Notes: generated from the sequence alone by a model not told the origin. DNA of 64,000 bases from Paracoccaceae bacterium (GCA_020832705.1 JAFIEE010000002.1:478-64477), one strand, 5' to 3'. Counted from the stretch's first letter, positions 4,041 through 24,806 are shown. Numbers and translations are program-made.

Positions 4041-4513
4041 GTCGTGTCCTCCGCTGGGCTGAGTTCGCGTTTAAAGCCGATATGGCTTGGCGTAAAGCCG
4101 AGGCGGGCGTAAAACGCCCGCGCATCGCGGCGGCTGGCGTTGGTTGTCAGTTGCATGAGCGCGCAGCCTGCAGCGCGGGCGCGCGCGGCGGCGTCATCGA
4201 ACATCCGCGCACCAAGACCGGTGCCGCGCATCCGCGATGCCACGCGCACGCTTTCGATCTGCGCGCGCCGGGTGGCGCCCAGCGACAGCCCGGTGATGAA
4301 GGTGATCTGATAGGTGGCGACCGGTGCGCCGTCGATTTCGCCCAGGATCACGTGATTGTCCGGCTCAGCCAGCAGGCGGGCGAAGGCGCTGGCGTAGGCG
4401 GTGTCGCCCGCGTCCTCGCGCATGGCGCCCAGCCGGTCATCGCGCAGAAGCGCAAGGATTGCGGGCAGGTCATCCGCCCGCGCCTGCCGGAACATCACCG
4501 CGCCGCTTCCCAT
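4025..4513 (-). CDS. GNAT family N-acetyltransferase
   Basis: [13 protein letters not shown] acetyl-CoA motif A and [10 protein letters not shown] motif B; overlaps the trpB start. Confidence 0.85.
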
Positions 4514-4594
4514 GCCGCCCCTCGCCGCCTGCCAGAGGTGCAGATGTAGCCCCCGCCCCCGGCGCGGTAAAGCGCGCGGGTGACGCAGCGACCG

Positions 4595-5413: not shown

Positions 5414-5596
5414 GGCCTTTCTCCCGGCTGGAAAAGGCGGCAGCATAGCACATTTTGCCCAGTTCCGCAGCCCCTGGCCTGTATCGCCCCCGGAAATGGC
5501 GGATGCGGCGCGGTCGCGCGCTGGCGTCGGTTCCGCTTGAAGGCGCCCGGAAAAACTGATTTTGTGCCGCCCGATCATCCGCGCTCGCAGGCCCGC

Positions 5597-6670: not shown

Positions 6671-6797
6671 GCGCGCCGCGCGGGGGGAGCGGCGCGCGGC
6701 TCCGGCGGGACTTCAGGCCGACACCGCGTGCGCGGGCGTCAGGCGCGCAGGCGGCGCATCCGGGGCGCGCGCAGTCATGGCCAGCCCGCAAACCGGT

Positions 6798-7862
6798 TCA
6801 GTCCAGCTCCAGCGGTTCCGAAGGGCGTGCGGCGGCGCGAAACGCAGCCTCGACCAGTGCCATGGTGGCATAGGCATCCTCGATCCCGCTGAACAGCCGG
6901 TCATCCTCGCCCGCGTCGAACCGTTGCAGGTTGCGCATCGGCCCCATGAACGAGTCGATGAACCAGCCGCCGCGCAGCGGCACCGCCTCCCAGTCGCCGC
7001 CCTTGCGGCACAGCCACAGCTCGTCCGGTTCGCCGTTGGGATAGTCGTAGCAGACGCCGAGCTTGATCATCGCCGCGCCCTCGGTGCCCTCGATCCGCCA
7101 CCAGGCACTCTGGAACTTCCGCCCGAACGGGTGGTTGTGATTGATCGACATGAGCGCGCGCAGGGGCGCGGGGTAGTCCAGGATCAGCGAGGTGCGCGTC
7201 TGCGCGAATTCGGGCGCGCGCGGGTCGGCGATGGTGCGCGCGAACACGCCCGAAGGCGTGCCCGCCAGCGCGCGCAGCGTGTCCAGGTAATGGATCGAAT
7301 GCACGGCAATCTCGACCCGCTCCATGGGGATCAGGAACGGAAAGATATGCCAGGGCGTGTAGATGTTCAGATGCACCTCGACCTCCAGCAACTCGCCCAG
7401 CAGCCCCTGTTCAATGGCCGCCCGCGCCGCCATCATCATGGGCGAGAACCGGAGCTGGAAATTCATCGCCGCCTTCAGCCCCTTGTCGCGGCAGATCGCG
7501 CGGATCGTCCGGGCCGCCGCCTGATCCGGCCCCATGGGCTTCTGGATCAGCACCGCCGCGCCATCAGGCAGAGCGGGCAACACATCGGCGATGGCCCCGG
7601 GCGGCAATGCCAGGTCATAGACCGCGCCTGTGCCGAAGGCTTCGGCCGCCGCCGCCGCGCTGTCGAACACGCGCGCGATCCCCTGCGCCTTGGCCACGGC
7701 TTCGGCGCGGGCGCGGTCGATATCCACCGCTGCCGCCACCGGCAGATCGGCCATCGCATAGGCGGGCAGATGCGCATCCTTCACGATACCGCCGGTGCCG
7801 ATGATGACGATGGGTTTCGGCGCGGCGGGGGCGGGCCAGAACTGGGGCAGGTCCGGGGTCAT
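6798..7862 (-). CDS. Gfo/Idh/MocA family oxidoreductase
   Basis: IIGTGGIV Rossmann motif, IQKPMG, HSIHYLD; ATGA overlap with the upstream MaoC gene. Confidence 0.88.
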
Positions 7863-8311
7863 GCCGCAGGCTCCTTGCGTTCGACCAGCAGGATATGTTC
7901 GCAATACATCACCGTGCGGCCCTCCTGATTCAGGGTTTCGCAGATTTCCACCACCTGCCCGTGACCGGGGCGTTTGGGATCGTCGCGCTTCTCGCCGATG
8001 GTGACGCGGGTGCGGATGGTGTCGCCCGCATGCACCGGGGCGGGAAAGCGCAGCCGCTCGTAGCCATAGGTGAAGGCGCGCGGGTTGATCACCGTGGCGG
8101 TCAGCCCGATACCGATGGCAAAGGTCATGGTGCCATGGGCCACGCGCCGGCCGAAGGGTTGCGTCGCGCACCATTCGGCATCCATGTGATGCGGGAAGAA
8201 GTCGCCCGAATGTCCGGCATGAAAGACGATATCCGCCTCGGTGATGGTGCGGCCAAAGGTCTCGCGGCTGGCGCCGGTCTCGTAGTCCTCGAAGTACTGT
8301 TCGTGCTGCAT
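7859..8311 (-). CDS. MaoC family (hot-dog fold) dehydratase
   Basis: [23 protein letters not shown] (D-x4-H), [17 protein letters not shown]. Confidence 0.88.
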
Positions 8312-8409
8312 CTCCCCCCCTATTTCGCCTGCGCAAGGCATTTTGCCCTGTCGAATCGATACCCTGCCCATAGCGATGGCAAACACCCTTCTCCTGTGCA
8401 AGCGTTTTG

Positions 8410-8448
8410 TTCATGAAAAAGTTTTTGACATAGCAAAAATCTTGTGAA
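8410..8448. promoter_or_regulatory. Divergent promoter/operator of the sugar-acid/CoA island
   Basis: AT-rich patch with inverted repeat TTTTTG-ACATAG-CAAAAA (8422-8439) containing TTGACA (8425-8430), and palindrome TTCATGAA (8410-8417), between divergent MaoC genes. Confidence 0.6.
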
Positions 8449-8485
8449 ATGCATCTGGCAGGGATGTCAACGGGGGGAGTTCGGA

Positions 8486-9058
8486 ATGGCAGAGATCGGC
8501 GTGCATGCACGGGGCCTGCCGGGCCTGCCCGAGGATCACGCGGCGGTGCCCGTGTGGAACGCCGAGGACTGGTATTTCGAGGATTTCGAGATCGGCGACC
8601 GCATCCGCTCGATCCGCCGGACCATTTCCGAGGGCGAATCGATGCTGTTCAACAGCCTTGTGATGGACCACCACCCCTATGTCTCGGACGAACGCTTCGC
8701 CGCCGAGGCCGGCGTATTCGGGCGTCGGCTGGTTGCGGGGGCGATGGTGTTTTCCTATGGGCTGGGACTGGCGGCGACAAACTGCCTGAACTCTTTTTCC
8801 TATGGCTATGACCGGCTGCGCTTCATCAAGCCGGTGTTCATCGGCGACAGCATCTACACAATCCGCGAAAACCTGTCCAAGCAGGTCCATAACGACACCA
8901 TGGGCAAGCTGCGCGTCAGCTATTCGGTCTACAAGGGCGAGGGCGAACTGGCGCTCTATGCCGAGCATCTGCTGACCGCGCTCTACCGTGATCCGGCCGC
9001 CCATGCGGAGGCGGTCGCCGCAGCGCGGGCCGAACGCGAGGGCGCGCGCCATGGCTGA
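8486..9058 (+). CDS. MaoC family protein (second copy)
   Basis: [38 protein letters not shown]; GGGAG RBS. Confidence 0.85.
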
Positions 9059-10187
9059 GATCACCCTGCGCGGCATGACCTGGGACCACGCGCGCGGCTA
9101 TGACCCGATGGTGGCCACCGCAACCGAATGGGCGCGCCGAAACCCCGGCGTGCGGATCATCTGGGAAAAGCGCTCGCTGCAGGCCTTTGCCGACCGCCCG
9201 ATCCGCGAGATGGCCGATACATACGACCTGATGGTGATCGACCACCCGCATGTGGGCGAGGTGGCGGCCGAAGGCAACCTGCTGGCGCTGGACGGCTGCG
9301 GCCATGATGACGCGCTGGCCGCACTGGCCGCGCAGACGGTGGGCCAGTCGCATGCCTCCTACAATTTCGGCGGGCGGCAATGGGGGCTGGCGATCGACGC
9401 CGCAACGCCGGTTGCCGCCTTCCGCCCGGACCTGCTGGACGAAGCGCCCACCCGCTGGGAGGATGCGCAGGCGCTGGCCGCGCAGGGGCGCGTGGCTTTC
9501 GCGTTGGTGCCGATCAACGCGCTGATGACGCTGTTCGGGCTGGCGCGCAATCTGGAGTATCCCGTGGCCGAACACCCCGAGCATTTGCTGGCCCGCGACC
9601 ACGGCGCGCATGTGCTGGGCGAGTTGCGCGCCATGGCCGCAAATCTGGACCCGCGCTGTTTCGACTGCGACCCCATCGCCATCTATGACTGGCTGAGCGG
9701 CGACGCGGACGCGCCCGCCTATTCGCCCTTCGGCTATGGCTATACGAATTACAGCCGTGACGGGTATTGCCCGCATCCGCTGGTCTTTGCCGACGCGCCG
9801 GGCTTTGGCGACAACGGGCCGCGCGGCACGGTGCTGGGCGGGACCGGGATCGCCGTCTCGGCCCGCACGCGCCACCCCGAAGCCGCGATGGCCTATGCCT
9901 TCTGGATCGCCGGGGCGGAATGCCAGAAGGGGCTGTTCTTCGCGGCAGGCGGCCAGCCGGGCAACGCGGTCGCCTGGGAAGACCCGGCCTGCAACGCCGC
10001 GTGCCGCAATTTCTTCACCAATACCCGCGCCACACTGGAAACCGCCTGGCTGCGCCCGCGCTACAACGGCTACATGGCCCTGCAGGACCGCGCGGGCGAT
10101 GTGGTGCGGGCCTGCCTGAAGGGTGAGCTGGCGGTGCCGACCGCGCTGGATACGCTGGACCGGCTTTACCGGGAGACGCGCGCATGA
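9051..10187 (+). CDS. ABC-type solute-binding-fold protein lacking a signal peptide
   Basis: [45 protein letters not shown]; SBP_bac_1-like with no hydrophobic N-terminus. Confidence 0.75.
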
Positions 10188-11407
10188 CCCCGCTGGCGCA
10201 GGCAAGCCGCCCGCTGGACGGGCTGGTGGTGGTGGATTTCTCGCAGTTCCTGTCAGGGCCTTATTGCGCGCTGAAGCTGGCCGATCTGGGCGCGCGGGTG
10301 ATCAAGATCGAACGCCCCGGCGTGGGCGATCTGTGCCGCACGCTGTATCTTTCGGACACCGATATCGGCGGCTCCAACAGCCTGTTCCACGCCATCAACC
10401 GCAACAAGGAAAGCTTCACCGCCGATCTGCGCGACGCTGGCGACCGCGCGCGGCTGCGCCACCTGCTCGCGCAGGCCGATGTGATGATCCAGAACTTCCG
10501 CCCCGGCGTGATCGAGCGGCAGGGGTTCGGGCATGACGCGGTGCGCGCGCTCAACCCCGCCATCGTCTATGCCTCGATCTCCGGCTATGGCGAGGACGGG
10601 CCATGGGCCGGGCTGCCGGGGCAGGACCTGCTGGCGCAGGCGCGGTCGGGGCTGCTGTGGCTGAGCGGCAGCCGCGACGACCCGCCGATGCCCATGGGGC
10701 TGGCGGTGGCGGACATGCTGGCGGGCGCGGCGCTGGCACAGGGTGTGCTGGCCGCGCTGGTCGGTCGGTTCCGCACCGGGCGCGGGGCGCATGTGCAGAC
10801 CAGCCTGCTGGAGGCGATGATCGATTTCCAGTTCGAGGTGCTGACCACGCATCTCAACGATGGCGGGCGGCTGCCGCAGCGCGCGGCCGAGGGGGGCGCA
10901 CATGCCTATCTGGGTGCGCCCTACGGGGTGTATCAGACCGCCGATGGCTGGCTGGCGCTGGCCATGACGCCCTCGCTGGAGCGGCTGGCGGGTCTGCTGG
11001 ACCTGCCCGCGCTCAAGCCCTATTGCGACGATCCGCGCAAGGCGATGACCGCGCGCGATGCTATCCGCACACTGATCGCCGGGGCAGTCGCCAGCCGCAG
11101 CACGCAGGCCTGGCTCGATGTGCTGCAACCCGCCGACATCTGGTGCGCCGAGGTGCTGGACTGGCCGCAACTGATGGCGTCCGAGGCGTTCCGGAGGCTG
11201 GACATGGTGCAGCCTATCGCCGGGCCAGGCGCGGCGCTGCAGACCACCCGCGCGCCCCTGCGCGTGGACGGGCAGACGCTGGCCAGCCCCCGCGCGGCCC
11301 CGGAGCTGGGCGCGGACCGGGCGGCGATCATTGCGGAATTCGGACTTGACGGTGCGCAGGATGATGCACCGGCAGCAGGGATCATGGCGCGAGGCACTGC
11401 GCGATGA
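10184..11407 (+). CDS. CaiB/BaiF family III CoA-transferase
   Basis: PLDGLVVVDFSQFLSGP, LADLGARVIKIERP, NRNKES, QNFRPG, catalytic Asp region LAVADMLAG. Confidence 0.92.
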   Translation: MTPLAQASRPLDGLVVVDFSQFLSGPYCALKLADLGARVIKIERPGVGDLCRTLYLSDTDIGGSNSLFHAINRNKESFTADLRDAGDRARLRHLLAQADVMIQNFRPGVIERQGFGHDAVRALNPAIVYASISGYGEDGPWAGLPGQDLLAQARSGLLWLSGSRDDPPMPMGLAVADMLAGAALAQGVLAALVGRFRTGRGAHVQTSLLEAMIDFQFEVLTTHLNDGGRLPQRAAEGGAHAYLGAPYGVYQTADGWLALAMTPSLERLAGLLDLPALKPYCDDPRKAMTARDAIRTLIAGAVASRSTQAWLDVLQPADIWCAEVLDWPQLMASEAFRRLDMVQPIAGPGAALQTTRAPLRVDGQTLASPRAAPELGADRAAIIAEFGLDGAQDDAPAAGIMARGTAR

Positions 11408-11452
11408 CGGGCGGGGCACACCCCCGCCGCATGACAACTGGGGAGGAATGAC

Positions 11453-12778
11453 ATGGGACGATCACTGAAGGCACTGACCCTCGGCGTGTCGGCCACGGCG
11501 CTGATTGCCGGGGCAGCGGCAGCCGAAATCGACTTCGGGAACTTCGATGGCTACACCCTGCGGGTGAAGCTGATCGGCGGCGCGCAGTATGAACCGCTCT
11601 ACGCCGAAATCGGCGCATGGGAGGAAATGACCGGCGCCACGGTGCAGATCCTGTCGCGGCAGAACCATTTCGAACTGGACCGCGAGATCAAGCAGGACAT
11701 CGCCGCCGGAACGCTGAACTGGTGCGTGGGGTCCAACCACACCAGCTTCGCGCCACAATACGGCAACATCTACACCGACCTGAATGACCTTATCCCGCAG
11801 GAGGTGCTTGACGCTTTCGTGCCGCTGGTGCTGGAGCATTCCACCGTCGGCGGGCGGCTGGTGCAGTTGCCGCGGCATTCGGATGTGTCGAACCTGTTCT
11901 ACATCCGCTCGCTCTATGAGGACGAGGCGCGCGCGGCCGCCTTCGAGGCGGAATACGGCTACCCGCTCGCCCCGCCCGAGACATGGGAACAGGTGCGCGA
12001 TCAGGCGATGTTCTTCGCCGATCCGCCCAATTTCTTCGGCACCCAGTTCGTGGGCCGGGACGAGGCGATCACCGGGCGCTTCTACGAGATGCTGGTGGCC
12101 GAAGGCGGGCAGCTCTTCACCGACGACTGGGAACCCGCCTTCAACTCCGAAGCCGGGGTGCGGGCGCTGTCCTGGTTCGTGGACCTGTATGAAGCCGGGG
12201 CCGTGCCTGCGGGGGTGCCGAACTACCTGTGGGATGACACCGGGCTTGGCTTTGCCTCGGGGTCGGTGGCGCTGAACCTCGACTGGGCGGGCTGGGCGGC
12301 CTTCTTCAACTCCGAAGAGGATTCGGCCATCGGCGGCAATGTCGGCGTGACCCGCGCGCCCATGGGCGCGGCCGGGGTGCGCACCGGATGGTCGGGCAGC
12401 CACACCTTCTCGGTCACCGAAACCTGCGACAACAAGGAAGCCGCCGCCTCCTTCGTCACCTTCCTGACCGACCACGACCGCCAGATGGTCGAGGCGCGGC
12501 GCGGCCTGCTGCCCACCCGCACCGCCGTGTGGGAAAGCGCCATGGGCGAGTTCCGCGACGCAGGGGACGATTTCATGGTCGAGGTGTTCGAGACCTTCCA
12601 GACCTCGATGGCCGAAGACGCCTTCACGCCGCCGCTGATCGCCGAATGGATCGAGGTGTCGAACGAGCTGTGGCCGCGCCTTCAGGCCGCGATGGTCGGC
12701 GACATGACCCCGCAGCAGGCGCTGGACGAGGCCGCCCGCGAGGCGCTGGTCATCATGGAAGACGCGGGCTACCGCTGA
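11453..12778 (+). CDS. Carbohydrate ABC transporter substrate-binding protein
   Basis: Signal peptide MGRSLKALTLGVSATALIAGAAAA, PPETWEQ motif, GGAGG RBS; precedes permeases. Confidence 0.88.
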   Translation: MGRSLKALTLGVSATALIAGAAAAEIDFGNFDGYTLRVKLIGGAQYEPLYAEIGAWEEMTGATVQILSRQNHFELDREIKQDIAAGTLNWCVGSNHTSFAPQYGNIYTDLNDLIPQEVLDAFVPLVLEHSTVGGRLVQLPRHSDVSNLFYIRSLYEDEARAAAFEAEYGYPLAPPETWEQVRDQAMFFADPPNFFGTQFVGRDEAITGRFYEMLVAEGGQLFTDDWEPAFNSEAGVRALSWFVDLYEAGAVPAGVPNYLWDDTGLGFASGSVALNLDWAGWAAFFNSEEDSAIGGNVGVTRAPMGAAGVRTGWSGSHTFSVTETCDNKEAAASFVTFLTDHDRQMVEARRGLLPTRTAVWESAMGEFRDAGDDFMVEVFETFQTSMAEDAFTPPLIAEWIEVSNELWPRLQAAMVGDMTPQQALDEAAREALVIMEDAGYR

Positions 12779-12789
12779 GCCGACAACTG

Positions 12790-12818
12790 CCCGGCGCGCG
12801 GCCTGTCCGCGCGCCGGG
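12790..12818 (+). terminator. Stem-loop after the SBP gene (mRNA stabiliser or partial terminator)
   Basis: 12-bp stem CCCGGCGCGCGG-cctgt-CCGCGCGCCGGG, no U tract. Confidence 0.5.
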
Positions 12819-12841
12819 GCCGCAATCACGAAGGACACCCC

Positions 12842-13753
12842 ATGCTGCGCGCCCTTCGCGTGCGCCAGACGGCGCTTGCCCCCCTGATCCTGCTGACACC
12901 GGCTTTCACGGTGATGCTGTTCGTGGTGGCCCTGCCGCTGGCGTTTTCGCTCTATACCTCGATGACGCCCTACCGGCTGATCCGGCCCGAAACGCTCGAT
13001 ATCTTCATCGGCACCCGCAACTATGTCCGGCTGTGGGACAATGCCGCGTTCTGGGCGGCGTTCTGGCGCACGATCCTGTTCCTGGCCATCGCCCTGAACG
13101 CGGAGCTGCTGCTGGGGCTGGGGATTGCGCTGCTGATCAACAAGCTGACCTGGGGCCAGCGCACGCTGCGCACGATCATGATGTTCCCGATGATGTTCTC
13201 GCCCATCCTGGTGGGCTTCCAGTTCAAGTTCATCTTCAACGACAACATCGGCATCGTGAACAATGCGCTGCAATCGCTGGGGCTGACCGACCGCGCGATT
13301 CCGTGGCTGGTGGATGCGCAGCTTGCCATGTTCTCGATCATCGTGGCCGAGGTGTGGATGTCCACCTCGATCTTCGCCATCCTGCTGCTGGCGGGGCTGC
13401 TGGCCATGCCGCGCGACCCGGTCGAGGCCGCGAAGGTCGATGGCTGCAATTCATGGCAGGTGTTCCGCCACATCACCCTGCCCTTCCTGATGCCCTTCAT
13501 CTTCATCGCCATGACGATCCGCAGCCTGGACGTGGCGCGGGCCTATGACATCGTGCATGTGATGACCGGCGGCGGCCCGGCGGGCCGCACCGAGCTGTTG
13601 TGGACGCTGATCGCGCGGGTCGGATACGACAACGCCCGCATGGGCGAGGCCAATGCCATGGCCTATGTCTCGACGCTCCTGTCCATCGCCTTCACCGTGT
13701 TCTTCTTCCGCAAGCTGATGGCGGCGCGGCGCTACATGGGGGGTGCGGAATGA
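12842..13753 (+). CDS. Carbohydrate ABC transporter permease (MalF/UgpA-like)
   Basis: EAA loop VEAAKVDGCNSWQVFRHITLP; 6 TM segments. Confidence 0.92.
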   Translation: MLRALRVRQTALAPLILLTPAFTVMLFVVALPLAFSLYTSMTPYRLIRPETLDIFIGTRNYVRLWDNAAFWAAFWRTILFLAIALNAELLLGLGIALLINKLTWGQRTLRTIMMFPMMFSPILVGFQFKFIFNDNIGIVNNALQSLGLTDRAIPWLVDAQLAMFSIIVAEVWMSTSIFAILLLAGLLAMPRDPVEAAKVDGCNSWQVFRHITLPFLMPFIFIAMTIRSLDVARAYDIVHVMTGGGPAGRTELLWTLIARVGYDNARMGEANAMAYVSTLLSIAFTVFFFRKLMAARRYMGGAE

Positions 13754-14607
13754 CCCGGGCGCTGAAGCAGCGGCTGTCGGCGGCGGCGCTGTGGCTGGTC
13801 ACCTTCCTTCTGATGGTGATCATGTGCATCCCGGGGCTGTGGGTGGTGCTGTCGGCCTTCCGCCCCAACCGCGAGATCCTGGCGCGCCCGCCCGTGTGGG
13901 TGCCCGAGCGGCTCACGCTGAACAACTTTGCCAAGATCTTCGGGCTGGGAGAGGCGCAGGTAGCGATCCCGGTGGGGTCCTATTTCATGAACTCGCTGGT
14001 GATCGCGCTGACCTCCACCTTCGTGGCGCTGGTGATCGGCATGGCGGGGGGCTACGCCTTCGCGCGCTTCCGCTTCCGGTTCAAGAATTCGCTGTTCCTG
14101 TCGCTGATGCTGCTGCGCACGGTGCCCGCGATCGCGCTGTCGCTGCCGCTCTTCATGCTCTGGAGCCGGCTTGGCATCATCGACACGCAGATGGGGCTGA
14201 TCATCGTCTATATTGCGCTCAACGTGCCCTTTACCATCTGGCTGATTGACGGGTTCTTCCGCCAGATCCCGATGTCGCTGTCCGAGGCCGCGCAGGTCGA
14301 TGGCTGCACCCGCTGGCAGGCGTTCTGGAAGATCGAGTTTCCGCTGGCCAAGGGCGGGATCGCCGCGGCCGGGGTCTTTGCGTTCCTGACCTCGTGGAAC
14401 GAATACGCGCTGGCGGCGCAGCTCACCCGCTCCACGGACAGCAAGACCCTGCCGGTGGGGCTGATGGACTTCACCGCGCAGTTCACCATCGACTGGGCGG
14501 GCATGAGCGCCATGGCCGTCATCATCATCGTCCCGGCCCTGATCCTGACCTTCCTGGTTCAGAAACACCTGATCCGCGGGCTGACCTTTGGCGGCGTGAA
14601 AGGGTAA
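13750..14607 (+). CDS. Carbohydrate ABC transporter permease (MalG/UgpE-like)
   Basis: EAAQVDGCTRWQAF, FLTSWNEY, TLPVGL; ATGA overlap. Confidence 0.92.
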   Translation: MTRALKQRLSAAALWLVTFLLMVIMCIPGLWVVLSAFRPNREILARPPVWVPERLTLNNFAKIFGLGEAQVAIPVGSYFMNSLVIALTSTFVALVIGMAGGYAFARFRFRFKNSLFLSLMLLRTVPAIALSLPLFMLWSRLGIIDTQMGLIIVYIALNVPFTIWLIDGFFRQIPMSLSEAAQVDGCTRWQAFWKIEFPLAKGGIAAAGVFAFLTSWNEYALAAQLTRSTDSKTLPVGLMDFTAQFTIDWAGMSAMAVIIIVPALILTFLVQKHLIRGLTFGGVKG

Positions 14608-14609
14608 CC

Positions 14610-15704
14610 ATGGCCGAGATTTCACTGAAGAAAGTCGTCAAGTCCTACGGGCGCACCCCGGTTGTCCATGGCATCGACCTGGAAATCGCGGACAATGAAT
14701 TCGTGGTGCTGGTGGGGCCTTCGGGCTGCGGCAAGTCCACCACGCTGCGGATGATCGCGGGGCTCGAGGATATCTCGGACGGCGAAATCCGCATCCGCGG
14801 GCGACTGGTCAACGACCTGCCGCCGCGCAAACGCAACATCTCGATGGTGTTCCAGAACTACGCGCTTTACCCGCACATGAGCGTGCGCGACAATCTGGGC
14901 TTCGGGCTGAAGATCGCGGGGCAGTCCAGATCCGTGGTCGCCGAACGCGTGGCCGAGGCGGCGGGCATCCTGGGCCTGTCGGACCTGCTGGACCGGTTGC
15001 CTGCGGAACTGTCGGGCGGGCAGCGCCAGCGTGTCGCCATGGGGCGTGCCATCGTCCGCCACCCCGATGCGTTCCTCTTTGACGAACCGCTGTCGAACCT
15101 GGATGCCAAGCTGCGCGGCCAGATGCGTGCCGAGATCAAGAAGCTGCACCAGAAGGTCGCCAGCACCATCGTCTATGTCACCCATGACCAGATCGAGGCG
15201 ATGACCCTGGCCGACCGGATCGTTGTCATGCGCGACGGCCATATCGATCAGGTCGGCACCCCGATGGAGGTGTTCAACCACCCGGTCAACACCTTCGTCG
15301 CCGCCTTCATCGGCTCGCCGCCCATGAACCAGTTGCCCGCGGTGGTCGATGCTGGCCGTTTGCGGCTGGAGGATGGCACCACCATCGCCGTACCCGAACG
15401 GCTGCGCGCGCGCGTGCGGGCGGGCCAGAAGCTGATCCTGGGCGTGCGCCCGGACGATATAAGCCCCGAAGGCTACGGGTTGATGGAGGACGGCGAAAGC
15501 GACCGTGTGGACCTGCTGGTCGACATCGCCGAGCCGCTGGGCATGGAAAGCCTGATCTACTCGCGCCTTGCCGGGCAGGAGGTGCAGGCCAAGCTTTATG
15601 GCCCGCGTCTGGTCGCACCCGGCGAGCGGCTGACCTGCCGCATTTCGCTTTCGCGCGCGCATCTGTTCGACGCCGGAACCGGCCGCAACCTGGAGGCCGA
15701 GTGA
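14610..15704 (+). CDS. Carbohydrate ABC transporter ATP-binding protein (MalK/UgpC-like)
   Basis: Walker A GPSGCGKST, signature LSGGQRQR, DEPLSNLD, C-terminal TOBE-like domain. Confidence 0.95.
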   Translation: MAEISLKKVVKSYGRTPVVHGIDLEIADNEFVVLVGPSGCGKSTTLRMIAGLEDISDGEIRIRGRLVNDLPPRKRNISMVFQNYALYPHMSVRDNLGFGLKIAGQSRSVVAERVAEAAGILGLSDLLDRLPAELSGGQRQRVAMGRAIVRHPDAFLFDEPLSNLDAKLRGQMRAEIKKLHQKVASTIVYVTHDQIEAMTLADRIVVMRDGHIDQVGTPMEVFNHPVNTFVAAFIGSPPMNQLPAVVDAGRLRLEDGTTIAVPERLRARVRAGQKLILGVRPDDISPEGYGLMEDGESDRVDLLVDIAEPLGMESLIYSRLAGQEVQAKLYGPRLVAPGERLTCRISLSRAHLFDAGTGRNLEAE

Positions 15705-16822
15705 TGGCGCGGATCGAACGCATCGCCCTGGCCATGGTGGATCTGCCGCCGCAGACCCTGCGCACCGATGCGATCCAGAGCTTTGTCAGTCAGGAAACCC
15801 CGCTGCTGACCATCACCGACGCCGATGGTGCCGAAGGCACAGGCTATGCCTATACCATCGGCACCGGGGGCCCGGCGGTGATGAGCCTGTTGCGCGACAC
15901 GCTTGCGCCCCGTCTGATCGGACGCGAGGCCGAGGAAATCGAGGCGATCTGGCGCGACCTGCTGTTTGCCACCCATGCCACGGCGGTCGGCGCCATCACC
16001 TCGCTGGCGCTGGCGGCGGTGGATACGGCGCTGTGGGACCTGCGCTGCCGCCGGGCGGGGCTGCCGCTGTGGCGCATGGCGGGGGGCGCGAAACCTTCGG
16101 TCCCGGTCTATTCGACCGAAGGCGGCTGGCTGCATATCGACACGCCCGCGCTGGTGGATGACGCGCAGGCGGTGCAGGCGCAGGGCTTCGCCGGCGCCAA
16201 GGTCAAGATCGGCAAACCGCATCTGGCCGAGGATGCCGCCCGGCTGGGGGCCGTGCGCGCGACGGTCGGCGATGCGTTTCATCTGATGGTCGATGCCAAC
16301 CAGGCCTTCACGCTCAACGCGGCGATGATGCGCGCCGACATGCTGGCCGGGCACGGGATCACATGGTTCGAGGAACCCATGCCCGCCGACGATATCGGCG
16401 CCCATGCAAGGCTTGCTGCGCACTCTCGCGTGCCGGTGGCGGTGGGCGAGAGCCTTTATTCCGCCAGCCAGTTCAAGGATTACCTCGACCGGGGCGCGGC
16501 TTCGGTGGTGCAGGTGGATGCGGCACGCATCGGCGGGATCACGCCCTGGCTGAAGGTCGCGCACATGGCCGAGGCGTTCAACATTCCGGTCTGTCCGCAT
16601 TTCCTGATGGAGCTGCATGTCAGCCTTGTCTGCGCGGTGCCGAACGGCTGGATGCTGGAATACATCCCGCAGCTTGATGCGATCACCACCTCGCGGCTGG
16701 ACCTGCGCGACGGGCGCGCGCACGCGCCGCAGACGCCGGGACTGGGGATCGACTGGGACTGGCAGGCCATCGCCGCCCGCACCGTGGCGGGCAGCGCAAG
16801 CGAGATCGCACAGGGAGGATGA
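15704..16822 (+). CDS. Mandelate racemase/enolase superfamily enzyme (probable sugar-acid dehydratase)
   Basis: KVK, DAN, WFEEP, GES, QVDAARIGG, CPHF; start could be GTG 15701. Confidence 0.88.
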   Translation: MARIERIALAMVDLPPQTLRTDAIQSFVSQETPLLTITDADGAEGTGYAYTIGTGGPAVMSLLRDTLAPRLIGREAEEIEAIWRDLLFATHATAVGAITSLALAAVDTALWDLRCRRAGLPLWRMAGGAKPSVPVYSTEGGWLHIDTPALVDDAQAVQAQGFAGAKVKIGKPHLAEDAARLGAVRATVGDAFHLMVDANQAFTLNAAMMRADMLAGHGITWFEEPMPADDIGAHARLAAHSRVPVAVGESLYSASQFKDYLDRGAASVVQVDAARIGGITPWLKVAHMAEAFNIPVCPHFLMELHVSLVCAVPNGWMLEYIPQLDAITTSRLDLRDGRAHAPQTPGLGIDWDWQAIAARTVAGSASEIAQGG

Positions 16823-16823
16823 C

Positions 16824-17153
16824 ATGCAACGGATGGGAATGGTGATCGGGCTGAAACCCGAAAAGGTCGAAGTCTACAAGCGCCTGCACGCCGATGTCTG
16901 GCCCGATATTCTGGCCATGATCAGCGCGTGCAACATCACCAATTATTCGATCTTCCTGAAGGAGCCGGAAAACCTGCTGTTCGGCTACTGGGAATACACC
17001 GGCGCGGACTTCGAAGCCGACGCGGCCAGAATGGCCGCCGACCCGCGCACGCAGGAATGGTGGGATGTCTGCATGCCGTGTCAGGTGCCGCTCGACACCC
17101 GCAAGGACGGCGAATGGTGGGCGATGATGGAAGAGGTGTTCCACCATGACTGA
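16824..17153 (+). CDS. L-rhamnose/L-fucose mutarotase family (RhaM-like)
   Basis: YKRLHADVWP, NYSIFL, LFGYWEY, TQEWW, MEEVFH. Confidence 0.88.
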   Translation: MQRMGMVIGLKPEKVEVYKRLHADVWPDILAMISACNITNYSIFLKEPENLLFGYWEYTGADFEADAARMAADPRTQEWWDVCMPCQVPLDTRKDGEWWAMMEEVFHHD

Positions 17154-17799
17154 TGCCGACCGCCTGGCGCAACTGCAGGGGTGTTACACGTCGGTCATCC
17201 ATGACGTGATGCGCGCCATGGGGCTGCGCAACTTCACCCTGCCCCCTCGCATCCGCCCGCTGCAGCCCGAGGCCGTGCTGACCGGCCCGGCATTCACCAT
17301 CCAGGGGCGGCTGGACGAGACAGCCGACCCGCACGAAACCCTGCTGGCCTGGACCGGACTGCTGTCGCAGGCCCCGGCGGGGCATGTCTGGACCTGCCAG
17401 CCGCATACGCATCTGGTGGCGCAAATGGGCGAGCTTTCGGCCGAGACGCTGCACCGCAAGGGCGTTCTTGGCTGCGTGGTCGATGGCGCGCTCAGGGACA
17501 CGAATTTCCTGCTGCGGCTGGGTTTCCGCGCCTGGGGCACGCACCACACCCCGCGCGATGTGGTGGGCATGTGGCTGCCCACCGCCACCGGGGCCAAGAT
17601 CATGATCGGCGAAGTGGCGATTGCCCCCGGCGACTGGCTGCACGGGGACCGCGACGGCATGGTGCGCATCCCCGCCGCAAGGCTGGACCCGGTGATCGCG
17701 GCCGCCGTCACCGCGATGAACACCGAAAGCATGGTGCGCAAGGCGATCCTGGAGGGCATGGACCCGCAGGACGCCTATGTGAAACACGGCAAGTTCTGA
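17146..17799 (+). CDS. RraA family protein (HMG/CHA-type class II aldolase-like)
   Basis: GPAFT, MGELSA, VVDGALRD, PGDWLHGDRDGMVRIP. Confidence 0.85.
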   Translation: MTDADRLAQLQGCYTSVIHDVMRAMGLRNFTLPPRIRPLQPEAVLTGPAFTIQGRLDETADPHETLLAWTGLLSQAPAGHVWTCQPHTHLVAQMGELSAETLHRKGVLGCVVDGALRDTNFLLRLGFRAWGTHHTPRDVVGMWLPTATGAKIMIGEVAIAPGDWLHGDRDGMVRIPAARLDPVIAAAVTAMNTESMVRKAILEGMDPQDAYVKHGKF

Positions 17800-18905
17800 T
17801 GCGAATCGCCGCGCTGGATATCCGCGCCTGCCGCCTGCCGCCCCTGCCCGGGGCGGACAGCCTGCGGGGCGGCACCGGCGGCGCGATGGATTGCGTGGTC
17901 TACACCCTGCGCACCGACTGCGGGCGCGAAGCCGCGATGCTGGGCTTTGCCGGCCGCTCGGCACTCGGCACGGCGCATACCGCCGCAGCCTCGCTGCGCC
18001 CGTTCCTTGCAGGGCGCAACGCGCTGGACCGCGAAGCGATCTGGCACGACTGGCGCCGCGCCGACCGCTGGTGGCATCACCTGCCGATCTTTGGCTGGGG
18101 GCCGGTGGATGCCTGCCTGTGGATCCTGGCGGCCGAGGCCGCGGGCCAGCCGCTGTGGCGCTATATCGGCGGGGCGCGGGCCGAGGTGCCGGTCTATGCC
18201 TCGTCGCTGGTGCTGGACGGGCCGGACGCCTATGCCGCCGAGGCCCGCGCGGTGCAGGCCGCGGGCATGGCGGGATACAAGATCCACCCCCCCGGCCACA
18301 GCCTGCACGCCGATATCGAGATCCACCGCGCCGTGCGTGATGCCGTGGGGGACGGGTTCGCGCTGATGTCCGACCCGGTGCAGCCCTATACCTTTGACGA
18401 GGCGCTGCGCCTTGGGCGCGAGCTCGAACGGCTGGGCTATCTGTGGTACGAGGAACCCCTGCCAGACGAGGCCATGGGCGCACTGGCCGAACTGACCCGC
18501 ACGCTCGACATTCCGGTGGTCGGCACCGAGGTTCTGGCGAAGCATCCTTATTCCGTGGCCGATGTGGTCGCCCGCCGGGTGGTGGACGCCGTGCGCGCCG
18601 ATGTCTCCTGGAGCGGCGGCGTGACCGGCGCGCTCAAGACCGCGCGGCTGGCCGAAGCCTTCCACATGAACTGCGAAATCCACACCGCCATCTTCCACCC
18701 GCTGGAGATGGTGAACCTGCACCTGTGCGGCGCGGTGCAAAACAACACCTTTTTCGAACTCCTGTGGCCGATGGAGCCCTTCGGCTTCGGGCTTGCGGGC
18801 GCGCTGCCGGTGGCACAGGGCGTAGCCCGCCTGCCCGAGACCCCGGGCCTGGGCGCCGCGCTGGACCGCGACGCAATAGAAAACGCGACACTGGAGGTTG
18901 TCTGA
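17799..18905 (+). CDS. Second mandelate racemase/enolase superfamily enzyme
   Basis: YKIH (KxH), MSDP, WYEEP, GTE, RADVSWSGG, CEIH; TGATG overlap. Confidence 0.85.
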   Translation: MRIAALDIRACRLPPLPGADSLRGGTGGAMDCVVYTLRTDCGREAAMLGFAGRSALGTAHTAAASLRPFLAGRNALDREAIWHDWRRADRWWHHLPIFGWGPVDACLWILAAEAAGQPLWRYIGGARAEVPVYASSLVLDGPDAYAAEARAVQAAGMAGYKIHPPGHSLHADIEIHRAVRDAVGDGFALMSDPVQPYTFDEALRLGRELERLGYLWYEEPLPDEAMGALAELTRTLDIPVVGTEVLAKHPYSVADVVARRVVDAVRADVSWSGGVTGALKTARLAEAFHMNCEIHTAIFHPLEMVNLHLCGAVQNNTFFELLWPMEPFGFGLAGALPVAQGVARLPETPGLGAALDRDAIENATLEVV

Positions 18906-18906
18906 C

Positions 18907-19227
18907 ATGGCCGCCACAGACTCCCGCCTGCTGCTGCTCTCGCCCGGCGACAGCGTCTATGTGCTGCGCGACCAGGTTGCGGCGGGCGAGGTCATCGCGG
19001 TTCAGGGCCGTCATGTCACCGTGCCGGTGGCGCTGGGGCTGGGCCACAAGATCGCCCGCGTGGCGATTGCCGCCGGAGAAAAGGTCATCAAGTACGGCGC
19101 GCCGATAGGATCGGCCAGCACCGCGATTGCACCGGGCGAGCATGTGCATCTGCACAACCTGCGCAGCGATTACACGCCGACCCATTCGCGCGATGCCGCC
19201 TCGGACACAGGGGAGGAAACCGCATGA
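18907..19227 (+). CDS. UxaA family dehydratase small (SAF-domain) subunit
   Basis: GHKIA, VIKYGAPIG, GEHVHLHNL. Confidence 0.88.
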   Translation: MAATDSRLLLLSPGDSVYVLRDQVAAGEVIAVQGRHVTVPVALGLGHKIARVAIAAGEKVIKYGAPIGSASTAIAPGEHVHLHNLRSDYTPTHSRDAASDTGEETA

Positions 19228-20438
19228 ACAACGCTGCGAAGACCGCGCCCGCCCTGCGGGGCTATCCGCGCCGCGACGGGCGCAAGGGCATCCGCAACGT
19301 GATCGCGGTGGCCTATCTGGTGGAATGCGCCCATCACGTCGCCCGCGAAATCGCCGGGATCGACCGCGCGGCGGCGCATGTCATCGGCTTTCCCGGCTGC
19401 TTTCCCAACGTTTACGCACAGAAGATGATGGAGCGGCTGTGCACGCATCCGAATGTGGGCGCGGTGATGATCGTTTCGCTGGGCTGCGAAAGCTTCGACC
19501 GCGACCGGCTGGCGCGCGTGGTGGCCGAGAGCGGCCGCCCGGTGGAAACGCTGGTGATCCAGAATGCGGGCGGCACGCGCAGCACCATCGCCGCCGGGCA
19601 GGACTGGGTGCGCGCGCGGGCCGCCGAGCTGGCCGCCGCGCCTACCGTGCCGATGGATGTGTCGGAACTGGTGGTGGGCACGGTCTGCGGCGGGTCGGAC
19701 GGCACCTCGGGGATCACCGGCAACCCGGCGGCGGGCGTGGCCTTCGACCGGCTGGTGGCAGCGGGCGCGACCTGCATCTTCGAGGAAACCGGCGAGCTGA
19801 TCGGCTGCGAAGAGATCATGGCCGCCCGCGCCGCCACGCCCGAACTGGCCGTGGAGCTACGCGCCAGCGTGGACAAGGCCGCGCGCTATTACGCCACGCT
19901 TGGCTTCGGCAGTTTCGCCGTCGGCAATGCCGAAGGCGGGCTGACCACGATCGAGGAGAAATCGCTCGGCGCCTACATGAAATCCGGTCAGTCGCCCATC
20001 TCGGGGCTGATCAAGCCCGGTGACATCCCGCCGCGCGGCGGGCTTTACCTGATGGATGTGGTCCCCGACGGCGAGGTGCGCTTCGGCTTTCCCAACATCT
20101 CGGACAATGCCGAGATCGTCGAGATGATGGCCTCGGGGGCGCATTGCACGCTGTTCGTCACCGGGCGCGGGTCGGTGGTGGGTTCGGCGCTGGCGCCGGT
20201 GATCAAGATCGCCGCCAACCCGCATATGTACCGCCGCCTGGCCGAGGACATGGACATCAACGCCGGACGCATTCTAGAGGGCGCTGCCTCGGTTGCGGAG
20301 GTCGGCGCGGAGATCTTCGATTTCGTCTCTGCCCTGGCCGCCGGCAAACAAAGCGCGTCCGAGGCGCTGGGGCATCAGGAGTTCATCCTGACCTACAAGA
20401 GTTTCGAACCGATCGGACCGGCCTGTCTGCCGGTTTGA
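19224..20438 (+). CDS. UxaA/GarD family dehydratase large subunit
   Basis: GYPRRDGRKGIRN, HPNVGAV, SLGCE, CGGSDGTSG, GNAEGGLTTIEEKSLG, FVTGRGS. Confidence 0.9.
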   Translation: MNNAAKTAPALRGYPRRDGRKGIRNVIAVAYLVECAHHVAREIAGIDRAAAHVIGFPGCFPNVYAQKMMERLCTHPNVGAVMIVSLGCESFDRDRLARVVAESGRPVETLVIQNAGGTRSTIAAGQDWVRARAAELAAAPTVPMDVSELVVGTVCGGSDGTSGITGNPAAGVAFDRLVAAGATCIFEETGELIGCEEIMAARAATPELAVELRASVDKAARYYATLGFGSFAVGNAEGGLTTIEEKSLGAYMKSGQSPISGLIKPGDIPPRGGLYLMDVVPDGEVRFGFPNISDNAEIVEMMASGAHCTLFVTGRGSVVGSALAPVIKIAANPHMYRRLAEDMDINAGRILEGAASVAEVGAEIFDFVSALAAGKQSASEALGHQEFILTYKSFEPIGPACLPV

Positions 20439-20456
20439 ATGAACGATGAGGGACCC

Positions 20457-21206
20457 ATGGGACGACTGAACGGCAAGACCGCGCTGCTGAGCGCGGCGGG
20501 ACAGGGGATCGGGCGCGCTTCGGCGCTGGCCATGGCGCGGGCGGGCGCGCGGATCATCGCAACCGACATCAACCCGGATACGCTGGCCTCGCTGAGCACC
20601 GAGGCCGAAGGGCTGGCGCTGGAAACACGCCTGCTGGACGTGCGCGACCCGGACGCGGTGGCCGCGCTGGCCGCCGACCTGCCCGCCCCGGATGTGCTGT
20701 TCAACTGTGCGGGCTTTGTCGCACATGGCACGATCCTGGATTGTGACGAGGACGCCTGGGCCTTCAGTCTGGATCTGAACATGACCGCCATGTACCGGAT
20801 GATCCGCGCCTTCCTGCCCGGGATGCTGGCCGCGGGCGGTGGCAGCATCATCAACATGGCCTCGGTCGCCTCGTCGATCATCGCCGCGCCCAACCGTTTC
20901 GTCTATGGCGCGACCAAGGCGGGGGTGATCGGCATGACCAAATCGGTGGCGGCGGATTTCGTCACGCAGGGCATCCGCTGCAACGCCATCTGCCCGGGCA
21001 CGGTGCAAAGCCCCTCGCTGGAGGATCGGCTGTCGGCCACCGGCGACTATGAAAGCGCCCGCGCGGCCTTCATCGCGCGCCAGCCCATGGGCCGGATCGG
21101 CACGCCCGACGAGGTGGCGGCGCTGGTGGTCTGGCTCGCCAGCGACGAAAGCGCCTTTGTCACCGGGCAGGCGCATGTCATCGATGGCGGTTGGGCGAAC
21201 ACCTGA
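20457..21206 (+). CDS. SDR oxidoreductase (2-keto-3-deoxy-L-fuconate dehydrogenase/BDH2-like)
   Basis: SAAGQGIG, LFNCAGFVAHG, NRFVYGATK (YxxxK), ICPGTVQSPSL. Confidence 0.85.
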   Translation: MGRLNGKTALLSAAGQGIGRASALAMARAGARIIATDINPDTLASLSTEAEGLALETRLLDVRDPDAVAALAADLPAPDVLFNCAGFVAHGTILDCDEDAWAFSLDLNMTAMYRMIRAFLPGMLAAGGGSIINMASVASSIIAAPNRFVYGATKAGVIGMTKSVAADFVTQGIRCNAICPGTVQSPSLEDRLSATGDYESARAAFIARQPMGRIGTPDEVAALVVWLASDESAFVTGQAHVIDGGWANT

Positions 21207-21245
21207 GTCCGCACCGCTGAACGCAAGGAGAAAGGGAGGCACGCC

Positions 21246-22097
21246 ATGGAGTTCATCGACACCCACCAGCACCTGATCTATCGCGACCGGCTGGGCTATG
21301 GCTGGACCGCAGGCATCGACGCGCTGGCGACCGGCGATTTCACGGTCGCGGATTACCAGACGCTGACCGAAGGGCGCGGCATCGCCGGAACCGTGTTCAT
21401 GGAATGCGCGGTGGATGACGCCGATTATCAGGCCGAGGCGCGGTTCATCGCCGGGCTGATGCGGCAGCCCGGATCAGGGATTCTGGCGCAGATCGCCTCG
21501 TGCCGCCCGGAGACCGAGGCCGGGTTCACCGACTGGCTGGACGAGGCGGCGGACCTGGGCGCGGTGGGTTTTCGCCGGGTGCTGCATGTGGTCCCCGACG
21601 AGGTCTCGCAAAGCCGGACATTCCGCGCCGGGGTGGCCGAGATCGGCCGGAGGGGGCTGAGTTTCGATGTCTGCGTGCTGGCGCGGCAACTGCCCATCGC
21701 CCGCGCGCTGGCGGCGGCCTGCCCGGATACGGTGATGGTGCTGAATCATTGCGGCGTGCCCGATATCGCCGGGGGCGCCTTCGACGCCTGGGCGGCCGAA
21801 ATCACGGCGCTGGCCGCGCATGAGAACATGCATGTGAAGCTGTCGGGGCTGACGGCCTATTGCGCGCCGGACAAGCGTGATCTGGACACGCTGCGTCCCT
21901 GGGTGGGGCATGTGCTGGACGCCTTCGGGCCGGCGCGCATGGTCTGGGGCGGCGACTGGCCGGTGGTCAACCTGGGCTCCGGTCTGCCGGACTGGATCGA
22001 CCTGTCGCGCGCGCTGCTGTCGCCGCTGTCGGCCGACGAGGCAACGGCGATTGCGCAACACAACGCGCGGCGGGTCTATCGCCTTCCGGACAGCTGA
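21246..22097 (+). CDS. Amidohydrolase_2 family sugar lactonase (L-fuconolactonase-like)
   Basis: IDTHQH, VLNHCGVP, VKLSGL, FGPARMVWGGDWPV. Confidence 0.85.
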   Translation: MEFIDTHQHLIYRDRLGYGWTAGIDALATGDFTVADYQTLTEGRGIAGTVFMECAVDDADYQAEARFIAGLMRQPGSGILAQIASCRPETEAGFTDWLDEAADLGAVGFRRVLHVVPDEVSQSRTFRAGVAEIGRRGLSFDVCVLARQLPIARALAAACPDTVMVLNHCGVPDIAGGAFDAWAAEITALAAHENMHVKLSGLTAYCAPDKRDLDTLRPWVGHVLDAFGPARMVWGGDWPVVNLGSGLPDWIDLSRALLSPLSADEATAIAQHNARRVYRLPDS

Positions 22098-24656: not shown

Positions 24657-24806
24657 GGTTTCCCCTGATGTGCTGCGGCGGGCGTGCGCGCAGGTCTGCC
24701 CGATGAAGCTAGAGGATATGGCGCGCCGGTCCAGCACCCCGCCGGACCGGTCAAGGCATTCGGGGCGGGGCGGTTGCGGGCCAGGGCCGGACGGGCGAAA
24801 CCCGGC

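Follow-up and report, generated by a model that had tools for sequence, protein, structure and literature searches.

A conserved coenzyme A module among sugar-oxidation genes in a catabolic island of a Paracoccaceae bacterium

A stretch of 64,000 nucleotides from a Paracoccaceae bacterium (GCA_020832705.1, JAFIEE010000002.1:478–64477; the whole stretch is termed the window) contains, at positions 6798–22097, an island of 17 divergent and tightly packed genes. Here, genes for a family III coenzyme A (CoA)-transferase (CaiB), two MaoC-type hotdog proteins (MaoC1 and MaoC2) and a cytoplasmic protein with the fold of a sugar substrate-binding protein (SBP), termed SBPlike, lie among genes of sugar oxidation. 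MaoC, SBPlike and CaiB together are a module without earlier description; neither this module nor CoA esters of aldonic acids were found described in the literature searched. The backbone of the pathway, judged by protein families and conserved residues, is the known non-phosphorylative L-fucose route (route 3) and is not new.

The island might be one regulon for the uptake and non-phosphorylative oxidation of an L-fucose-type 6-deoxyhexose, with a CoA unit acting on the aldonate or lactone, a reading to which we give somewhat less than an even chance. That the unit is a CoA-dependent system turning the aldonate into the 2-keto-3-deoxy acid is held with a little more reserve. More tentative again is the general form of the proposal, in which the transferase, the MaoC hydratase and SBPlike would be a new kind of sugar-acid dehydratase that works via an aldonyl-CoA thioester and replaces enolase, UxaA or IlvD enzymes in L-fucose- and L-rhamnose-type oxidation in many phyla.

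To our knowledge, every enzyme to which aldonate dehydration has been assigned so far depends on a metal or on iron-sulfur. Bacteria of soil, sea and gut, among them pathogens such as Campylobacter, use oxidative non-phosphorylative fucose and rhamnose routes to feed on plant, algal and host glycans. Relatives of the module are present in at least 562 species genomes and in hundreds of metagenome contigs, and the module sits at the dehydratase step in otherwise complete clusters. If the proposal is right, CoA-thioester chemistry would be added to sugar-acid catabolism, non-phosphorylative sugar oxidation would have its first CoA-dependent step, and the SBP fold would have a new cytoplasmic use. 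A large ‘transporter-like’ family, now mis-annotated as ABC substrate-binding proteins, would gain a function, and pathway-gap predictions for fucose- and rhamnose-type sugars would be corrected.

Proteins of the CoA module

The four genes of the module are as follows.

7859–8311, minus strand: MaoC1, a catalytic (R)-hydratase-type hotdog protein (PF01575, 74.8 bits)
8486–9058, plus strand: MaoC2, a hotdog paralogue without the catalytic His (NCBIfam PaaZ and RipB MaoC-domain matches)
9051–10187, plus strand: SBPlike, a cytoplasmic protein of the sugar-SBP fold (weak PF13416)
10184–11407, plus strand: CaiB, a family III (CaiB/BaiF) CoA-transferase (PF02515, 336 bits, full length)

MaoC1 carries the hydratase-2 motif as GDFFPHH, with both the Asp and the His kept, and is 58–61% identical to the single MaoC of low-GC loci. 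Its stop codon overlaps the start of the neighbouring gene for a Gfo/Idh/MocA oxidoreductase (Gfo) by 4 nt. MaoC2 is 36% identical to MaoC1, and in its motif, MDHHPYV, Val replaces the catalytic His; an orthologue with 60% identity is also present in locus L102. On these sequence features MaoC2 is probably a non-catalytic partner of MaoC1. The initial annotation had counted up to five dehydratase-like activities in the island; the families are all present, and the missing His of MaoC2 takes one from the count of those with an intact motif.

The SBPlike gene shares 8 nt with MaoC2 and 4 nt with CaiB. The AlphaFold2 model of the protein (pLDDT 89.5) has a two-lobe fold of the MalE/SmoF type, with a TM score of ~0.8 at an identity of 13–18%. 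SBPlike differs in several respects from the SBP of an ABC importer: there is no signal peptide, and the gene is placed between MaoC2 and CaiB and not beside the permeases. The family comprises 525 clusters at 50% identity (E < 1e-30), nearly all of proteins of ~360–430 amino acids, and because relatives align from the first ~20 residues, there is no room in them for a signal peptide.

All 17 orthologues compared have the catalytic Asp177 of CaiB, and the paralogues all retain it; this Asp and the Asp/His of MaoC1 are conserved across phyla. CaiB falls under all NCBIfam equivalog cut-offs (204 bits against 700 for the best match, then 192 against 750, 190 against 522 and 81 against 413), and it lies outside the subfamilies of known substrate (mesaconate, glutarate, oxalate, formyl-CoA, carnitine). 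A complex prediction for CaiB with SBPlike, with an alignment as input for each, gave a score of 0.00, which says nothing either way.

The sugar-oxidation backbone

Five further functions belong to the backbone.

6798–7862, minus strand: Gfo/Idh/MocA oxidoreductase, likely the sugar 1-dehydrogenase (FucA step; PF01408, PF22725)
16824–17153, plus strand: RhaM-family mutarotase (FucM step; PF05336, 113 bits)
18898–20438, plus strand: split UxaA/GarD-type dehydratase (SAF subunit 18898–19227, large subunit 19224–20438), likely an L-fuconate dehydratase (FucC step; PF08666; PF04295 and PF20629, 263 bits)
20439–21206, plus strand: short-chain dehydrogenase/reductase (SDR), an L-2-keto-3-deoxyfuconate 4-dehydrogenase orthologue (FucF step; 311 bits to the Herbaspirillum huttiense enzyme, L-KDFDH, 8XWK/8Y11)
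21246–22097, plus strand: Amidohydro_2 protein (cog3618-type), a probable sugar lactonase (FucB step; PF04909, 162 bits)

RhaM, the Amidohydro_2 protein and the split UxaA belong to the families that provide the mutarotase, lactonase and dehydratase of characterized fucose clusters, and the match is at the family level only. All three are under the equivalog cut-offs: RhaM scores 51 bits on TIGR02625 (YiiL; cut-off 99.6), the Amidohydro_2 protein 95 bits on NF052480 (L-fucono-1,5-lactonase; cut-off 400), with 52 bits to 4DLF, and UxaA 181 bits on TIGR03248 (cut-off 731).

The SDR also scores 292 bits against human DHRS6/BDH2, and alignment shows that it keeps Arg148, Arg192, Arg214 and Trp252, all four of the L-KDFDH substrate-binding residues. 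In the H. huttiense enzyme the three Arg residues hold the carboxylate and the hemiketal, and Trp252 packs on the C6 methyl group; the C4 selectivity is opposite between dehydrogenases for L-2-keto-3-deoxyfuconate (L-KDF) and L-2-keto-3-deoxyrhamnonate (L-KDR) (PMC11199699). This opposite selectivity points to an island of the fucose type, i.e. for a substrate of L-fucose, L-galactose or D-arabinose configuration, and since Trp252 touches the C6 methyl of L-KDF, a 6-deoxyhexose is argued for. The initial annotation had thought of a branched, deoxy or substituted sugar or sugar acid on an undescribed route. No pointer to a C4-branched sugar was found, and the C6-methyl contact of Trp252 speaks for a 6-deoxyhexose instead. 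As to the route, the CoA coupling is real and appears nowhere in the literature searched; the backbone, with an SDR at 311 bits and four conserved residues, is the characterized one.

No L-fucose 1-dehydrogenase of the characterized SDR or aldo-keto reductase (AKR) type is found in the island, whose sole SDR is the FucF orthologue. The Gfo protein, which has no close solved relative (top structure match 45 bits), is the island's sole candidate for the sugar 1-dehydrogenase step and likely performs it.

The module in metagenome loci

A metagenome scan was seeded with a narrower alignment, a 42-sequence alignment being too diverse. Eighty loci from it, with a GC content of 0.34–0.67, were annotated against seed proteins, and 34 of these are at least 12 kb in length. 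In the 34 longer loci, CaiB is present in 31, in two copies in 29, and MaoC and Gfo are present in 30 each, with the Gfo orthologue at ~288 bits; the lactonase is found in 24. Classical dehydratases are absent from 33 of the 34: there is one enolase, no UxaA and no IlvD/Edd, and IlvD/Edd dehydratases were found in none of the 80 loci when the genome's own four copies were used as seeds. CaiB directly adjoins SBPlike in 46 of 50 cases. A RhaT-family permease is encoded in 18 of the 80 loci, and some loci adjoin genes for GH28, pectinesterase, GH2, GH116 or sulfatase.

Two types of cluster are of major interest. Three loci (L093, L095 and L101, with GC contents of 0.35, 0.49 and 0.66) have the arrangement GntR / DHDPS-type aldolase, RhaM, lactonase, Gfo, RhaT / SBPlike, CaiB, CaiB, MaoC, and the genes on both flanks are unrelated. 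The closest matches of the DHDPS protein in this type of cluster are N-acetylneuraminate lyases, a group of class I pyruvate aldolases. By gene content, these three loci appear as complete aldolase-type clusters in which only the dehydratase step is missing. Nine other loci have lactonase, SDR, Zn-ADH, FAH / SBPlike, CaiB, CaiB, a second signal-less SBP, Gfo, MaoC and MFS, and here also the dehydratase is absent.

A further variant, locus L088 (positions 125–8230), contains DUF4432, CaiB, SBPlike, a crotonase-type enoyl-CoA hydratase, FAH, LacI and an aldehyde dehydrogenase. The crotonase takes the place of MaoC, which points to hydratase chemistry on a CoA ester.

The second SBP_bac_1 protein lies between CaiB and Gfo in low-GC loci (L127:11406–12677, and also L100, L121, L133 and others). 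It has no signal peptide and no permease genes nearby, and is ~21% identical to SBPlike. SBPlike relatives are also seen in other settings. At L091:6903–11922 an operon of AP_endonuc_2, enolase, Gfo, SBPlike and SDR genes contains no CoA gene, and at L086:8087–11149 a relative lies downstream of genes for a DHDPS-family protein and a LysE exporter, again with no CoA gene.

Conservation in Alphaproteobacteria

A scan of one genome per species with SBPlike, the protein encoded at 9051, detected relatives in at least 562 genomes, and the best 80 were sampled for synteny. These best 80 are all alphaproteobacterial (Rhodobacterales, Devosia, Hoeflea, Maritalea, Nitratireductor, Roseibium). The initial annotation tied its reading to the co-occurrence of MaoC and CaiB with sugar-acid genes in other genomes, and this holds: the CoA module is together with sugar genes in all 80 species loci and in unrelated metagenome loci, and these are not chance neighbours. 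Counts for single genes are confined to loci with enough flanking sequence, 57 or 56 being scored per gene:

MaoC2: 55 of 57 loci
Gfo: 53 of 57 loci
MaoC1: 50 of 57 loci
RhaM: 52 of 56 loci
RraA-like protein: 51 of 56 loci
Enolase-superfamily protein A (enolase A): 47 of 56 loci
UxaA: 46 of 56 loci
Enolase-superfamily protein B (enolase B): 33 of 56 loci

Enolase A, enolase B and UxaA are each dispensable singly, and at least one of the three is kept in 54 of 56 loci.

The locus of Paracoccus lutimaris (L001) is a telling variant. A TRAP acid importer replaces the ABC importer, and RhaM, Gfo and the lactonase are gone; the CoA genes, both enolases, RraA, UxaA, SDR and FAH are retained. The module thus persists where the sugar-oxidizing enzymes are missing, which places its substrate at or after the aldonate and implies that everything past lactone opening acts on the acid. 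In L020 (Sedimentitalea nanhaiensis) and L006, TRAP (DctPM) and ABC importer genes both adjoin the CoA genes, and two importers in one island suggest uptake of both the sugar and its acid.

Four orphan SBPlike genes (L046:9992–11134 and those in L073, L076 and L078) have no island genes nearby and were set aside as uninformative relics. The third-position GC of the L046 gene is 0.90, compared with ~0.75 in its neighbours, and this suggests a recent transfer.

A possible mechanism

Uptake of the sugar would be by the CUT1-type ABC importer, after which RhaM would equilibrate the anomers, the Gfo enzyme would oxidize C1 and the Amidohydro_2 protein would open the lactone. The split UxaA may then form the 2-keto-3-deoxy acid, perhaps with the two enolase-family enzymes acting on related aldonates. 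The SDR would oxidize C4, and an FAH hydrolase, encoded elsewhere in this genome, would cleave the resulting 2,4-diketo acid into pyruvate and L-lactate.

MaoC1 (with the His-less MaoC2), SBPlike and CaiB can be looked at as one functional unit that would act on the aldonate or lactone; evidence for a single unit comes from the start/stop overlaps of MaoC2, SBPlike and CaiB and of MaoC1 and Gfo. CaiB may make an aldonyl-CoA thioester. The MaoC hydratase would remove the 3-hydroxyl, and the product would tautomerize to a 2-keto-3-deoxy acyl-CoA. The CoA might then pass to a further aldonate molecule, in the manner of the carnitine CaiB/CaiD cycle, and SBPlike might bind the sugar acid or a labile intermediate. 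In the alphaproteobacterial island the unit would stand beside metal-dependent dehydratases and probably act on a different stereoisomer, whereas it seems to be the sole dehydratase in other phyla. The argument comes from the metagenome clusters: the upper enzymes end at the aldonate, the lower ones start at the 2-keto-3-deoxy acid, and the only conserved genes that are left are CaiB, MaoC and SBPlike, so that the simplest reading is CoA-ester dehydration.

Several points weigh against this proposal. Aldonyl-CoA esters are described nowhere in the literature searched, the 2-oxoacyl-CoA formed would be labile, and a ligase like CaiC, which could prime the cycle, is missing. The Gfo enzyme is unlike any characterized L-fucose dehydrogenase. 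This island holds three metal-dependent dehydratase candidates, and since 54 of 56 alphaproteobacterial loci keep at least one such candidate, the module is not simply a substitute there. The absence of dehydratases in metagenome loci covers only ~8 kb around the loci, and the enzymes could be encoded elsewhere in those genomes. Lastly, some SBPlike relatives (33–47% identical) adjoin a Gfo, enolase, SDR or DHDPS-family gene without CaiB or MaoC, and the SBP-fold protein therefore has a role independent of the CoA enzymes.

The presence of classical dehydratases beside the module in alphaproteobacterial islands raises the question of whether the module inverts stereocentres of the aldonate and brings about no net dehydration. 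The C2 centre could be inverted by enolization of the thioester, in the manner of alpha-methylacyl-CoA racemase, and C3 by dehydration and rehydration, which would funnel several 6-deoxy or hexose sugars into one route. Alpha-methylacyl-CoA racemase does belong to the family III CoA-transferases, and two CaiB paralogues are present in 29 of the 34 longer metagenome loci. However, the transferase Asp is kept in both paralogues, and the minimal clusters contain no dehydratase that the epimerized product could feed. We regard epimerization as unlikely.

The RraA-like protein, the enolases and the terminal hydrolase

Three genes between the importer and the split UxaA appear as additions to the backbone.

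15704–16822, plus strand: enolase A, mandelate-racemase subgroup, TalrD/GalrD-ACI group (PF13378, PF02746)
17146–17799, plus strand: RraA-like protein (PF03737, 84.5 bits)
17799–18905, plus strand: enolase B (PF13378, 165 bits)

In alignment to 2PP0 and 5XD7, enolase A keeps the KxK motif, the D/E/E metal ligands and the D-H dyad, and on this basis is likely an acid-sugar dehydratase or cycloisomerase. The closest solved match is the 3,6-anhydro-L-galactonate cycloisomerase 5XD7 (248 bits), and the protein is under the equivalog cut-off of NF047820 (288 bits against 500). For enolase B the closest solved match is an Agrobacterium tumefaciens protein (1RVK/4HCD, 142 bits). Two other substrates were considered in the light of these families. 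A uronate or aldarate route was prompted by the TalrD/GalrD-like enolase A, by an RraA-family KDGR dehydratase and by the prospect of the Amidohydro_2 protein as a lactone isomerase, and a route for agar-derived 3,6-anhydro-L-galactose by the ACI-like enolase A. In both cases RhaM, RhaT and Trp252 favour a 6-deoxyhexose as the main substrate, though the extra enolases may serve either route.

The RD pair of the RraA-like protein aligns with R123/D124, the catalytic and metal-binding Arg-Asp pair of the HMG/CHA aldolase 3NOJ, and the scores on the LigK/PcmE equivalog models, as on all others, are under the cut-offs (NF006731, 60 against 179; TIGR02798, 47 against 304). An RraA-family enzyme, FlDet, dehydrates and decarboxylates a keto-deoxy sugar acid (PMC8563752). 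The RraA-like protein is probably an enzyme that acts on a 2-oxo acid, as aldolase, decarboxylase or dehydratase. It is rare beside the CoA module outside Alphaproteobacteria. Enolase A, enolase B and the RraA-like protein are in large part an alphaproteobacterial addition, and they may widen the substrate range.

Scans of the window with Pfam and NCBIfam found no FAH gene and no kinase gene in the island, as the initial annotation had stated. The missing FAH is a local loss peculiar to this genome. In five isolate genomes (Mameliella, Sedimentitalea, Nitratireductor, Roseibium, Maritalea) FAH is found directly after the SDR, at or just past the end of the 21-kb locus, and these proteins are 64–81% identical to the FAH of the P. 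lutimaris cluster. The RraA-like gene and FAH are found together in these isolates. FAH is also at the operon end in L001, L052, L067 and L070, and the RraA-like gene is mostly present alongside. In the genome analysed, contig C184 carries a copy with 66% identity, as part of a second sugar-acid cluster. The P. lutimaris FAH scores 425 bits against the model for 2,4-didehydro-3-deoxy-L-rhamnonate hydrolase, and the genome's own FAH 409 bits. In the second cluster (C184:26448–32198; L084:3449–9199), FAH is accompanied by an SDR, a 413-amino-acid member of the enolase family, a protein resembling acetoacetate decarboxylase, a D-2-hydroxyacid dehydrogenase and a Peripla_BP_4 sugar SBP; the acetoacetate-decarboxylase-like gene is an unusual member for a sugar-acid cluster of this kind.

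These findings bear on the thought that the RraA-like protein stands in for FAH. In such a scheme the island would encode a main catabolic route, not described before, for a sugar acid that is branched, deoxy or substituted, with obligatory CoA activation and with the RraA-type aldolase making the final C–C cut. The absence of FAH from the window's island, the conserved Arg-Asp pair and the retention of the RraA-like gene in 51 of 56 alphaproteobacterial loci are in keeping with it. With FAH at the end of the same operon in relatives and a copy on C184, however, replacement of the hydrolase by an HMG/CHA-type aldolase, as the initial annotation had it, is not supported; moreover, the SDR is a clear orthologue of L-KDF 4-dehydrogenase and retains Trp252, the C6-methyl contact, and only 2 of the 34 longer metagenome loci with the CoA module have the RraA-like gene. 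We consider such a route improbable.

The products of cleavage deserve mention also. Route 3 yields L-lactate, or glycerate from L-galactose-type sugars, and the module might act downstream on such a C3 product (L-lactate, L-glycerate or glycolate), leading via a CoA ester to pyruvate or another central metabolite. The 3-hydroxyl of glyceryl-CoA could be removed by MaoC, and retention of the module in the P. lutimaris TRAP variant would fit. But in lactoyl-CoA a MaoC enzyme or a crotonase would find no 3-hydroxyl to remove; the module is also present in aldolase-type clusters, where the product is an aldehyde and no aldehyde dehydrogenase is in the cluster, and in clusters without any cleavage enzyme, which are 20 of the 34 longer metagenome loci. 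A downstream role has in our view a slim chance. Slighter by far is the chance that two unrelated pathways merely share an operon, one of them an itaconate/mesaconate-type CoA-dependent dicarboxylate route: the top NCBIfam matches of CaiB and MaoC are indeed mesaconate and glutarate transferases and RipB/Ich, all under cut-off, but Gfo, lactonase, RhaM and RhaT recur as neighbours across GC contents of 0.35–0.67 and in several operon orders, no CitE- or HpcH-type lyase is present, and the third member of the module has a sugar-binding fold.

Locus layout and surroundings

The draft genome is 3.64 Mb in 272 contigs and ~87% complete. The nearest relatives are metagenome-assembled genomes of Rhodobacteraceae, with 86–95% protein identity over the island. 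The divergent layout, the overlapping start and stop codons and the gene list of the initial annotation were all recovered: Pfam and NCBIfam scans find the 17 genes as placed and in the families named, two of them (Gfo and MaoC1) on the minus strand and 15 on the plus strand. Distances at the plus-strand junctions lie between −8 and +63 nt, and at nine of them the genes overlap or are 0–2 nt apart. The remaining features are a spacer and the four-gene ABC importer, which spans 11453–15704.

8312–8485: intergenic divergent spacer of 174 bp with an AT-richer core, where presumably both promoters lie
11453–12778, plus strand: periplasmic SBP of the CUT1-type sugar ABC importer, with signal peptide (PF01547, PF13416; hydrophobic N-terminus)
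12842–14607, plus strand: two ABC permeases (12842–13753 and 13750–14607; PF00528 twice)
14610–15704, plus strand: MalK-type ABC ATPase (PF00005, PF17912, PF08402)

The island is flanked by an AraC/GlxA-type regulator gene on one side and a GHL5 glycoside hydrolase gene on the other. Relatives have an IclR regulator at the island in 47 of 57 loci. In the window this is replaced by the AraC-type protein with a DJ-1/PfpI domain (5408–6670), and an IclR orthologue (64% identical) is displaced to C178:5041–5928 (L085:2542–3429), between trpA and a histidine kinase gene. At the other end, an 821-amino-acid GHL5 ‘hypothetical glycoside hydrolase 5’ protein (22272–24737, minus strand; 766 bits) converges on the operon end and could be a releaser of the sugar substrate.

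Comparison with known systems

Route 3, with the genes FucM, FucA, FucB, FucC, FucF and FucG, is known from Herbaspirillum huttiense, Xanthomonas campestris and Burkholderia (PMC11199699). The island has in common with it the mutarotase of the RhaM family, the lactonase of the Amidohydro_2 family, an aldonate dehydratase of the UxaA or enolase type and an orthologue of L-KDF 4-dehydrogenase whose substrate-binding residues are identical, and its relatives carry the FAH hydrolase at the operon end. It differs in having a Gfo/Idh/MocA sugar dehydrogenase in place of the SDR or AKR type, in the FAH missing from this copy, and in seven extra conserved genes (both MaoC genes, SBPlike, CaiB, the two enolase genes and the RraA-like gene).

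The Campylobacter jejuni L-fucose locus, cj0480c–cj0489, combines genes for a regulator and a transporter with those for a mutarotase, a dehydrogenase, a lactone hydrolase, a dehydratase and an aldolase of the DapA/DHDPS type; its dehydratase, Cj0483, is named without its family (PMC6946681). L093, L095 and L101 hold the same gene set save the dehydratase, and where that is absent SBPlike-CaiB-CaiB-MaoC stands instead. The window's island, by contrast, uses the SDR branch and has no DHDPS gene.

The RraA-like protein shares the RraA fold with the HMG/CHA aldolase (LigK/PcmE, 3NOJ) and with the RraA-family KDGR dehydratase/decarboxylase FlDet (PMC8563752), both of which act on 2-oxo-3-deoxy acids, one of these a sugar acid, and it keeps the Arg-Asp pair of the aldolase. 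Unlike these, it reaches only 40–60 bits and has no protocatechuate or alginate genes nearby.

SBPlike has the whole two-lobe fold of periplasmic sugar-binding proteins of the MalE/SmoF type (CUT1). It differs from them in that its family has no signal peptide in hundreds of clusters, in its low sequence identity and in its place beside CaiB and not the permeases; in addition, the island has its own separate exported SBP.

Escherichia coli CaiB and CaiD, a family III CoA-transferase and an enoyl-CoA hydratase, dehydrate a 3-hydroxy acid as its CoA ester and recycle the CoA to the next substrate. The module likewise encodes a transferase and a hydratase together, and as a pair they are conserved (CaiB in 31 and MaoC in 30 of the 34 longer metagenome loci). 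It differs in that the hydratase is a MaoC hotdog protein and not a crotonase, other than in L088, and in that the CaiC ligase and CaiA are absent; on the model for the L-carnitine transferase, which has a cut-off of 413 bits, the island CaiB reaches only 81. The module has instead an extra SBP-fold protein, and its neighbours are genes of sugar oxidation.

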